A stretch of DNA of 64,000 bases from the NCBI RefSeq assembly GCF_055900595.2, contig NZ_CM148325.1; one strand, given 5' to 3'. This document shows positions 1-3,000 of this stretch, piece after piece. Each line of letters opens with the position of its first letter. Position 1 is the stretch's first letter. The position numbers are program-made.

Positions 1-3000
1 GAGATAATGGTTTCCAGCATCGACCAGGACTTGATGGTCTCGCCGATAGTCAGGTTAAAGTACTCTTTGAACAGCCAGAAGCCCGGATCGTTCACGTGAG
101 AGAAAATCACACTACCGGAACCAACCGCAATAACCATCAGTTCCGGGCTAACACCCGTCGTTGCAATTAGTGGTGCCGCGATACCCCCCGCAGTGATTGC
201 CGCAACGGTTGCGGAACCCAGCGCGATACGCAGTACGGCGGCAATCGACCAGGCCATCAGCAGCGGAGAAATGTTGGTTTCGTGCATCATGGAAGCAATG
301 TATTTGTCCACGCCGCTGTCTACCAGCACCTGCTTGAACGCACCGCCACCACCGATGATCAACAGCATCATCGCGATGATTTTGATGGAAGAAACCAGCG
401 TGTCGTTAATCTGATCCATTGAACGACCACGGTTCAGACCAAAGGTGAACATCGCAATCAACACGGCAATCAGCGTTGCCATTACCGGGTCACCGAGGAA
501 CTCCGCCACTGGCAGGAAAGCGTGACCTTTCGGCAGGATCATTTCGGCAATTGCACGCATCGCCATCAGCACAACCGGCACCAGAGAAGTCCAGACGCTG
601 ACGCCAAAGCTTGGCATCTCTTCTTCGCTGAAGGTTTTCGCGCTGTACAGACCTTCCGGGATTGGCTTATCGATACCTTTCAGCACGCGAGCGTAAACCG
701 GACCCGCGAGAATAACGGTCGGGATTGCCAGAATAGTCCCGTACAGCAGGGTTTTACCCATATCGGCATTGAAAATGGTGGCAATCGCAGTTGGGCCCGG
801 ATGTGGCGGCAGGAAGCCGTGGGTCACAGACAGCGCAGCCGCCATTGGTACACCAACATACAGCAGCGGAATATTCGCGGAAGCCGCGATGGTAAACACC
901 AGCGGCAGCATTAGCACGAAGCCCACTTCATAGAACAGGGCAAAACCGACAGTAAAACCGGTTAACACTACCGCCCATTGGATGTGTTTTTTACCAAATT
1001 TGGCAATCAGCGTGGTGGCGATACGTTGTGCACCACCGCAGTCTGCCAGCATTTTGCCCAGCATCGCGCCAAAACCCATGATCAGGGCAAGGCTACCGAG
1101 CGTCCCGCCGACACCAGCTTTGATGGAGCCAATAACTTTATCCAGCGGCATTCCCTGCATTAATCCAACAGCAAGCGCCACGAGGACGAGAGCGATGAAT
1201 CCGTTCATTTTGAAGCGGATCATCAGGAGCAACAACAAGATTACACCGATAGCAACAATGACTAATGGCATGATTTACCTGGCCTTTCATTTGTTATGGG
1301 TAACGTCAATTTTCTGACGACAAACTCTAATTATCCCAATCGGGAACAGAGATATTGCGGCACCACGACTGATACCCACTAAAACTAATTATTGTAGTCA
1401 GATGTCAGGAGTATGTTTGGTACCCGCGTGAATGATACGGGTAACATCTGGCGTTTGAGAATCACCAGAGCGGGGTAAATTTAAATTATGAGAGGTTGGT
1501 CATATTATCGCGGGGAAACGTAGGGACTGGATTTGCCGAGGCAATGTAGCGCCAACGCCTGGCAGACGGCCCGATAAGACGCTTTAGCGTCGCATCGGGC
1601 AATCTATAAAAGAGAGGATAACTTAGTAGTAAGAGTGTTCGCCGCGCTGGTGTTCGGTGAGATCGCGTACACCTTTCAGCTCCGGGAATTCGTTCAGCAG
1701 CTGCTTTTCGATCCCTTCTTTCAGCGTCACATCGACCATTGAACAACCGTTACAACCGCCGCCAAATTGCAGAATGGCGTAACCGTCTTCGGTGATTTCC
1801 ATCAGCGAAACGCGACCACCGTGACCGGCAAGCTGTGGGTTGATCTGCGACTGCAGCATATACTCCACGCGCTCCATCAGCGGCGCATCGTCAGCTACTT
1901 TGCGCATTTTGGCGTTTGGGGCTTTCAGCGTCAGCTGAGAACCCAACTGGTCGGTAACAAAGTCGATCTCTGCATCTTCCAGGTAAGGCGCGCTTAACTC
2001 ATCAACATACGCGGTCAGCAGGTCAAATTTCAGGGCAGTGTCGGTGGCTTCCACAGCGTCCGGCGGACAATAAGAAACGCCACATTCAGCGTTAGGCGTG
2101 CCAGGGTTAATCACAAATACGCGGATTTGTGTCCCTTCTTCCTGATTTGCCAGCAGTTTGGCAAAGTGCGCTTGTGCAGCATCGGAAATACGGATCATAG
2201 TAATGGCCTAATAGTTGACTATTTTAGTTGGTTATAATACGCCCATCATCGAGGCTCTACAAGGTTCGACAAAGGCACCAGACCTGGACAGTCGCCGCAC
2301 CATTGCGTAAAAGCAACTGCGCAATCTCTGCGACGGTACTTCCGGTGGTAACGACATCATCCACTATCACCATATGGCGACCTTGCACCGGCAATTCAAG
2401 GCGAAAGGCATTTTTCAGGTTGCGTTTGCGCAGCCGGGCGCTAAGAAAATGCTGGGTCGCAGTGGCCCGTGTACGTGTGACGGCTTCGCTATCCCATTGG
2501 CAGTGCAACCAGCGTGATAACGGCTGACACAGCAAATCGCTCTGATTAAATCCCCGACGCCAGTGACGCCGCTGCCATAACGGCACGCTGATGATGCGGT
2601 CCGGCAATTGCAAACCGGTGGCGCGACGAGCGTGTAAGACTTCCAATAGTAACAGACGTGACAGGGCGCTGGCGATTTCGCAACGCCGGGAAAACTTAAG
2701 CTGGTGGATGAGCGGACTTAACGGCGGTGCATAGTCGGCAACCGTGACCAGTCTTTGCCACGGCGGTGGTTTTTGCAGGCAGCGACCACAGGGAAGATGG
2801 GAGTGTGTTGCGGGTAATCCACATTGTGGGCATAACGTTTTATCTGTACGGGTGGCGCGAGAGCATACCGAACAAATCCCCCAATGACCTAACGCCAGGG
2901 GCATTCGGCATAGCCAGCATAATCCCGGTACTGTTAGCATATGTTCATCCTTGTAAGTAAAAAGAGAACAATAGCGGATGAATAACATCTGGTGGCAGAC

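Follow-up and report, generated by a model that had tools for sequence, protein, structure and literature searches.

How can two genes that run head to head from start codons only 37 base pairs (bp) apart each be provided with a promoter? The question is posed by gntX (also named yhgH, a comF homolog) and bioH, a divergent pair in a 64,000-nucleotide (nt) stretch of DNA (NCBI RefSeq assembly GCF_055900595.2, contig NZ_CM148325.1; hereafter the window). The answer favored here, and considered probable, is a compact bidirectional control region in which the promoter of each gene is embedded in the first codons of the other.

The gene pair and its start codons

gntX occupies positions 2257–2940 on the minus strand and bioH positions 2978–3748 on the plus strand, stop codons included. 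The gntX ATG lies at 2940–2938 of the minus strand (plus-strand CAT at 2938–2940) and opens a 227-residue open reading frame (ORF) that begins MLTVPGLCWLC; the bioH ATG, at 2978–2980, opens a 256-residue ORF. Both products align over their full length with NCBIfam equivalog models, GntX with NF008616 (residues 1–227 of 227) and BioH, a freestanding pimeloyl-ACP methyl ester esterase, with NF007674 (residues 1–256 of 256), and GntX also matches TIGR00201 (ComF family). The N-terminus of the BioH chains in the PDB entries 1m33 and 4etw is MNNIWWQ, and a bioH start upstream of 2978 is excluded because an in-frame TAG is found at 2972–2974. RefSeq gives the same starts and the same 37-bp gap in three strains, namely the closest strain, K-12 MG1655 (b3412/b3413), and EDL933, with no start that differs from those of the initial annotation (2940, minus strand; 2978, plus strand). 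The reading of the sequence, RefSeq, and the full-length equivalog matches thus agree, and both annotated ATGs are correct.

The arrangement is neither a product of chance nor an annotation artifact. A scan of one genome per species yielded 70 loci that encode a BioH relative, and at 65 of them a gntX/comF homolog stands head to head with bioH. Codon alignments of the two genes were made for 41 Enterobacteriaceae and Erwiniaceae species (referred to below as the 41 species), and some comparisons were extended to 51 Enterobacterales. Throughout the 41 species, both ATGs occupy homologous positions, the gap measures 34–41 bp (47 bp in two Erwiniaceae loci), and two conserved blocks are found in it. 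The gap is 40–112 bp in other Enterobacterales and approximately 60–160 bp in Vibrionaceae and others, the head-to-head pair reaching Proteus, Xenorhabdus, Vibrionaceae, and beyond. The six divergent pairs in a 40-kb stretch of EDL933 are separated by 378, 227, 37, 611, 187, and 189 bp. The gntX–bioH spacing is a stable, old feature and the tightest divergent gap of its neighborhood. The biotin literature (PMC5438404) also records that bioH adjoins a divergent gntX/comFC.

The gap itself (2941–2977, ATGTTCATCCTTGTAAGTAAAAAGAGAACAATAGCGG) has a G+C content of 35%, versus 56% for either gene. Read rightward, its components are the complement of the gntX Shine–Dalgarno sequence, a stretch rich in A, the GAGAA of bioH, and, last, the complement of the hexamer that is the candidate −10 of gntX. 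The gntX Shine–Dalgarno sequence is AAGGA (2948–2952, minus strand), located 7 nt before the ATG, and it is AAGGAG(G) in most other species (complement CCTCCTT). The Shine–Dalgarno-like GAGAA of bioH is located at 2964–2968 on the plus strand, and its G at −12 is kept in 49 of 51 species.

A longer gntX ORF, starting with a TTG at position 3003, had raised the prospect that the two coding sequences overlap outright, in this case by 26 bp. That the upstream TTG is the true gntX start is hardly credible. The frame is open from this TTG to the annotated ATG in the window and in a few close relatives, yet seven other loci (L049, L040, L047, L069, L043, L045, and L037) have in-frame stops 1–10 codons before the gntX ATG, and the TTG itself is confined to Escherichia and a few others. 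The AAGGA stands at its 7-nt distance from the ATG at 2940, the equivalog model aligns from residue 1 of the 227-residue form, and RefSeq uses this ATG. The extension to 3003 is a mechanical ORF that is not conserved. As to which gntX start is conserved, it is the ATG at 2940, found at the homologous position in all 41 species, and the coding sequences do not overlap.

The bioH promoter inside gntX

A synonymous-site test was applied to the codon alignments of both genes, in which third codon positions that fail to vary are flagged. The constrained third positions in gntX are those of codons 2, 3, and 10, a cluster at codons 181–195, and codons 226–227. The rare codon CTA encodes Leu2 of GntX in 40 of the 41 species and Leu10 in all of them; only five of 49 conserved leucine columns in the two genes employ a single codon in at least 98% of species, Leu2 and Leu10 of GntX being among the five.

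Read on the opposite strand, these codons hold the elements of a promoter directed toward bioH. The complement of the gntX ATG–CTA is the hexamer TAGCAT (2935–2940), such that the last three bases of the bioH −10 element are the complement of the gntX start codon. This hexamer is preceded by TG (2932–2933), which complements the second and third bases of gntX codon 3, and the two together form the extended −10 element TGtTAGCAT (2932–2940, plus strand). TAGCAT is kept in 40 of the 41 species, its A2 and T6 as well as the TG in all 41, and the third positions at 2935 and 2932 are invariant. A −35-like hexamer, TAGCCA (2911–2916, plus strand; four of six matches), is the complement of gntX Trp9–Leu10 (TGG CTA), is likewise found in 41 of 41 species, and is separated from TAGCAT by an 18-bp spacer. 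TAGCAT is the sole universally conserved −10-like hexamer upstream of bioH on the plus strand.

The transcription start site (TSS) expected from this element is A2947, 7 nt past the end of the −10 at 2940, which gives a leader of 31 nt. Cappable-seq of the enterohemorrhagic Escherichia coli (EHEC) strain EDL933 places the bioH TSS at a distance of 31 from the start codon (PMC10469882 Table S5, in a row whose locus tag, 22700, is that of EDL933 bioH), and the start predicted from conservation and the start measured in EHEC agree to the base. An alternative 5′ end at G2964, with a 14-nt leader, is given for K-12 by RegulonDB v10.5 (via the same Table S5); this end is not preceded by a conserved −10, and whether it is a primary TSS is uncertain. 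At either published distance, the bioH +1 falls inside the gap, so that the −10 and −35 elements must reach into the gntX coding sequence.

The bioH promoter is a sigma-70 promoter of the extended −10 type, located on the complement of gntX codons 1–10, with a TG one base before TAnnnT, a TSS 7 nt downstream, and a weak −35 hexamer. The initial annotation had argued that 37 bp is too short for two independent promoters, and start codons separated by under approximately 80 bp are taken as too close for separate ones. For bioH, the argument is borne out by two independent lines, the conserved −10 and −35 hexamers in gntX codons 1–10 and the published TSS distances of 31 (EHEC) and 14 (K-12); the promoters are not both contained in the gap. 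The accompanying expectation, that a promoter and its 5′ untranslated region (UTR) would overlap the coding sequence of the neighbor, holds for the bioH promoter but not for the bioH 5′ UTR, which stays within the gap.

The nfuA promoters as an internal control

The RefSeq gene order at the locus is nfuA (1623–2198, minus strand), gntX (minus strand), bioH (plus strand), and rpnA. The synonymous-site test also flags gntX codons 181, 189, 226, and 227, which coincide with the hexamers of two nfuA promoters on the minus strand. One is sigma-32-like and consists of CTTGAAT (2400–2394) and CGCCATAT (2379–2372), with an expected start at G2364. The other consists of TTGTAG (2262–2257), which spans the last leucine codon and the stop codon of gntX, and TATTAT (2239–2234), with an expected start at approximately 2226. 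The frozen synonymous sites are found in the CTT of CTTGAAT, the CAT of CGCCATAT, and the TTG of TTGTAG.

The published nfuA TSS distances are 166 and 27/28 (PMC10469882 Table S5), and the expected starts equal them. Frozen synonymous sites therefore mark real promoters at this locus, and the mapped nfuA promoters within gntX serve as an internal positive control. Similar to the promoters of bioH and gntX, those of nfuA have their hexamers inside the coding sequence of a neighbor, where they are visible as frozen synonymous sites. In contrast, the nfuA promoters are co-directional with their host gene, whereas those of bioH and gntX are antisense to theirs. The expected nfuA starts also agree with the sigma-32 promoter reported within yhgH (Nonaka 2006, as cited in PMC9104697). 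The sigma-32 chromatin immunoprecipitation signal that has been assigned to yhgH stems from the nfuA promoter, which lies at the opposite end of gntX.

The candidate gntX promoter and the constrained sites in bioH

The candidate −10 element of gntX is TATTGT (2973–2968, minus strand), with a G at −14 (position 2975). Its T1, A2, and T6 are kept in 41 of 41 species, and both TAnnnT and the G at −14 are kept in 51 of 51 Enterobacterales (shifted by one base in four). The middle three bases vary (TTG, CTG, TCG, GCT, TTC, or CAC). The hexamer lies 5 nt from the bioH ATG, directly beside the bioH GAGAA, and its distance to this ATG is fixed whether the gap is 34 or 112 bp. A fixed T/A/T with a variable middle is the pattern of a sigma-70 −10 element and not of a ribosome-binding site.

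In bioH, nine of the 16 constrained third positions fall within codons 15–38. A near-invariant block of 26 nt (CATCTTGTGCTGCTGCACGGATGGGG, 3020–3045) covers codons 15–23, is shared by all 41 species, and has a synonymous codon entropy of 0.21–0.29, as compared with a mean of 1.19 for bioH; none of 5000 permutations reached this value. The rare codons CTT and GGA are fixed in it, and CTTGTG is invariant even in Proteus, Xenorhabdus, and Brenneria. The Vibrionaceae have the same residues encoded by different codons. The block harbors a 22-mer resembling a binding site of CRP (3022–3043), which is the best positionally conserved CRP-like 22-mer by a crude CRP scoring, and also a second −10-like hexamer, CAAGAT (3026–3021, minus strand). 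At core positions 4, 7, 16, and 19 of the 22-mer, the bases held constant at synonymous sites (T, G, C, and A) all agree with the CRP consensus.

It has to be considered that the block is unrelated to gntX and is instead an element of bioH mRNA structure or translation, a target of a small RNA or of a protein, or a site for another DNA-binding factor. All 26 bases are fixed, including the six central ones that are normally free in CRP sites, which exceeds what a weak CRP site would need. Counted along the bioH mRNA, the block spans nt 43–68, within reach of pairing with the leader, and in a single-sequence fold of the E. coli mRNA AAGAGAAC pairs with GUUCAUCUU. However, RNAalifold gave no supported consensus structure for the block on either strand, and no Rfam match was found for it; its fixed synonymous bases coincide with CRP core positions; and it is specific to the Enterobacterales, which have the tight gap, in contrast to the Vibrionaceae with their larger gaps and other codons. 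This explanation is considered unlikely. Motifs of the sigma-32, sigma-54, sigma-E, LexA, FNR, NtrC, DnaA, and BirA types were compared with the 26-nt block by eye only, and none fitted.

The second-best conserved CRP-like position is at 3075–3096, within bioH codons 33–40. It is a candidate CRP-S site (AAATGCGAGCTAAGTTCCTCAT, 3096–3075, minus strand) with the core TGCGA at 3093–3089, and its counterpart in K-12 lies at approximately 3544726–3544747 of NC_000913.3. The diagnostic C6 is represented on the plus strand by G3091, a four-fold degenerate position that is kept in 39 of the 41 species, and CGCA is retained even where the serine is replaced by alanine, proline, or threonine. Proteus has a site with both halves, TGCGA-N6-TCGCG, at the CRP-S position, and Xenorhabdus, Rouxiella, and Brenneria have similar sequences there. 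When TGCGA-N6-TCGCA was searched for, allowing two mismatches at most, there were fewer hits than in shuffled sequences, and this candidate was missed owing to its poor second half-site in E. coli.

On the literature side, comF is listed among the CRP-S genes and is said to be under a CRP-S promoter of its own in Enterobacteriaceae (Cameron & Redfield 2006, PMC1635313). In one published study, the requirement for CRP, cyclic AMP (cAMP), and Sxy, and the weak binding of CRP in vitro, were shown for ppdD and yrfD and not for gntX. The site at 3075–3096 may be the published comF CRP-S site.

Other candidates on the minus strand of this region were rejected. A 53-residue antisense ORF (2945–3106, minus strand), which overlaps the beginning of bioH and ends in the gntX Shine–Dalgarno sequence, is most likely not a gene, since other species conserve neither its start nor its frame. 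A minus-strand upstream ORF within the same interval, beginning at an ATG complementary to bioH His15, was discarded because this ATG is lost where residue 15 is aspartate (GAT) and neither sequence nor frame is conserved. A conserved RNA was not detected either, with no Rfam match at E values up to 1 and no consensus structure supported by RNAalifold on either strand (−6 to −9 kcal/mol).

A probable compact bidirectional control region

In the explanation favored here, a modest extended −10 promoter, located on the complement of gntX codons 1–10, drives bioH from A2947. gntX, as the comF homolog of the Sxy/CRP-S competence regulon, most likely uses TAnnnT at 2973–2968 as its −10 element. Without a usable −35 element, gntX would depend on cAMP-CRP (with Sxy), which may be bound within bioH codons 15–40 at 3022–3043, at 3075–3096, or at both. 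The gntX start is predicted at approximately 2959–2961, which would put the center of the CRP-like site at about −71.5 and that of the CRP-S site at about −124.5. With such a start, the two transcripts would overlap by approximately 13–15 nt, and so would the footprints of the polymerases. The promoters would then lie face to face and compete for the same DNA. The two start codons, the gap, their conservation, and the synonymous-site constraint are shown directly, and the bioH TSS comes from the literature; we infer the gntX core promoter, its start, the binding of CRP and Sxy, and the interference between the two promoters.

A different placement of the gntX promoter, deeper in bioH, is possible but rather unlikely. 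gntX would in this case have a leader of 74–105 nt antisense to the first 12–22 bioH codons, and the conserved block by the bioH ATG would be the bioH ribosome-binding region and nothing else. This placement comes in two versions. In the first, CAAGAT (3026–3021) is the −10 element, the start is near 3014, and the CRP-S site is at −71.5. All 41 species retain A2 and T6 of CAAGAT, and the site at 3075–3096, which is the better-supported CRP site across the order, is found at a standard class I distance from it. However, CAAGAT matches only three of six consensus positions and lacks a TG, and all six of its bases are invariant, unlike the TAnnnT pattern at 2973–2968. The second version is class II-like and would place the CRP-S site at about −41 to −46 and the gntX start at approximately 3040–3044. 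It has a precedent in comEA of Vibrio cholerae, whose CRP-S site is approximately 44.5 nt upstream of the mapped TSS (PMC4299799), but it comes without a conserved −10 element: TGGCAT and GGCATT lack A2, and Asn25 is encoded by AAC in a third of the species. Either version would make the 26-nt block a core promoter or an initial transcribed sequence; no conserved RNA structure was found in the gntX leader that they entail.

Several observations weigh against the compact region with the gntX −10 at 2973–2968. A distance of −124.5 is unusual for a CRP-S site, the CRP-like site at −71.5 is only a weak match, and the CRP-S site of E. coli has a single good half (TGCGA...TTCCT). Only pyrimidines follow the candidate gntX −10 for 8 nt, so that the gntX +1 would be a pyrimidine or lie 9–10 nt downstream. 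No gntX TSS was found in the accessible TSS datasets, and gntX is absent from the K-12/EHEC table (PMC10469882 Table S5); the latter absence fits a gene that is silent without Sxy. With respect to bioH, the RegulonDB 5′ end with the 14-nt leader is not explained by the extended −10 element, and the invariance of gntX codons 2–3 could stem in part from selection on translation initiation. A scan of 2600–3400 for consensus promoters found none, the bioH promoter having been missed because its hexamers match at eight of 12 positions and the threshold was nine of 12. Finally, the window diverges from K-12 at 1.5% of sites in 2900–3099 and at approximately 10% in 3100–3499; this low divergence around the gap, which is counted in favor of the region, could reflect constraint, a recombination boundary, or both.

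A bolder form of the compact region is quite unlikely. It supposes that the face-to-face promoters are mutually exclusive, such that Sxy and cAMP-CRP turning on gntX, for the uptake and utilization of DNA, shut off bioH, and the reverse. A complex of polymerase and activator on bioH codons 1–40 and the gap would block bioH, and the 26-nt block would be more than a CRP site, for instance the place where Sxy makes its long-sought contact with DNA or a site for an unknown factor. The embedding would further have locked comF and bioH together across the gamma-proteobacteria.

Relation to known systems

The divergent bioA/bioBFCD promoters of E. coli are face to face, partly overlap, and share a BirA operator. 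gntX–bioH would resemble them in having head-to-head genes with two sigma-70 promoters in one short stretch, for which the polymerases and any regulator compete, and it is a biotin-pathway locus as well. In contrast, bioA/bioBFCD has a true intergenic region of approximately 90 bp and a single shared repressor, whereas the gntX–bioH gap is 37 bp, with hexamers within coding sequence. gntX and bioH also belong to unrelated pathways, unlike bioA/bioBFCD, and E. coli bioH is reported not to be co-regulated with the other biotin genes (PMC5438404).

gntX shares with the CRP-S regulon its identity as the comF ortholog, a conserved upstream TGCGA half-site with C6, and an expected silence without Sxy. 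It differs in that its candidate site is inside the coding sequence of another gene and has one good half in E. coli. The distance from the candidate CRP-S site to the start codon is 145.5 nt, as compared with 68.5 nt in V. cholerae comEA (PMC4299799).

gntX–bioH is a known kind of arrangement, with overlapping divergent promoters, elements in the coding sequence of the neighbor, and two well-studied genes. The literature and databases already recorded the two genes and their adjacency, a TSS for bioH, and the place of comF in the CRP-S regulon. Three descriptive points are added here: the bioH −10 is assigned to the complement of the start codon of gntX, the longer ORF of gntX is rejected, and the frozen synonymous sites that mark the candidate gntX control region are located within bioH. 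No new question is opened, and the practical value is mostly for the annotation and engineering of the locus. If gntX codons 1–10 were deleted or recoded, the promoter of bioH, which is needed for biotin synthesis, would be lost, and gntX regulation would probably be disabled by a recoding or replacement of bioH codons 1–40. Standard knockout and codon-optimization designs at the locus therefore carry polar risks. The locus may also serve as a teaching example of regulatory signals in coding sequence, legible as frozen synonymous sites and forced rare codons (CTA, CTT, and GGA).

Further observations

An octamer, GTTGCATT, is found at 3066–3073, midway between the two CRP-like centers at 3032.5 and 3085.5, which are 53 bp apart. 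C3070 does not vary among the 41 species, not even in those with a residue other than cysteine; conserved Cys–Ile codons explain most of GTTGCATT. The octamer matches the CytR octamer and is regarded as a lead only. CytR-type promoters such as deoP2 have tandem CRP sites approximately 53 bp apart. The layout of two CRP-like centers with GTTGCATT between them is deoP2-like, but there is no evidence of CytR involvement, and this similarity is likewise a lead only.

A genomic SELEX (systematic evolution of ligands by exponential enrichment) peak of RpoS described as inside bioH and towards gntX falls at approximately 3280 after conversion between genome versions. It was not counted as support because it is 200 bp or more, approximately, from the conserved elements. 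The window also contains the mrcA–hofM intergenic region (27859–27977), and hofM (yrfD) heads another Sxy/CRP-S operon that has been tested experimentally (PMC1635313). On reading alone, nothing obvious in the way of a shared CRP-S motif was seen in 27859–27977.

The window is E. coli DNA, and the 1.6 kb around the locus are 99.9% identical to several RefSeq chromosomes. Over 2890–3050, K-12 and EDL933 differ from the window at positions 2893, 2899, and 2959 only, and EDL933 equals the window across 2900–3050 save for position 2959. The allele of this strain is a minority one: among 5425 E. coli records, identity over the 1.6 kb (2200–3800) is 99% or more in only 16 and 90–95% in 5135.

A near-perfect direct repeat, seen in Escherichia only, is formed by ATGTTCATCCTTGT at the left edge of the gap (2941–2954) and ATGTTCATC-TTGT in bioH codons 13–17 (3015–3027), which read ACAAGGATGAACAT and ACAAGATGAACAT on the gntX strand. 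Other genera have CTTGT alone in common, and the repeat is probably chance plus the conserved CTTGT.

Three loci are titled Chryseobacterium sp. 18061 (L019), Martelella alba (L040), and Terrisporobacter mayombei (L053), the last of these being a 673-bp contig at 0.9x coverage. All three hold a typical Enterobacterales gntX–bioH pair with a BioH identity of 68–94%, and the records look like contaminated or mislabeled assemblies.

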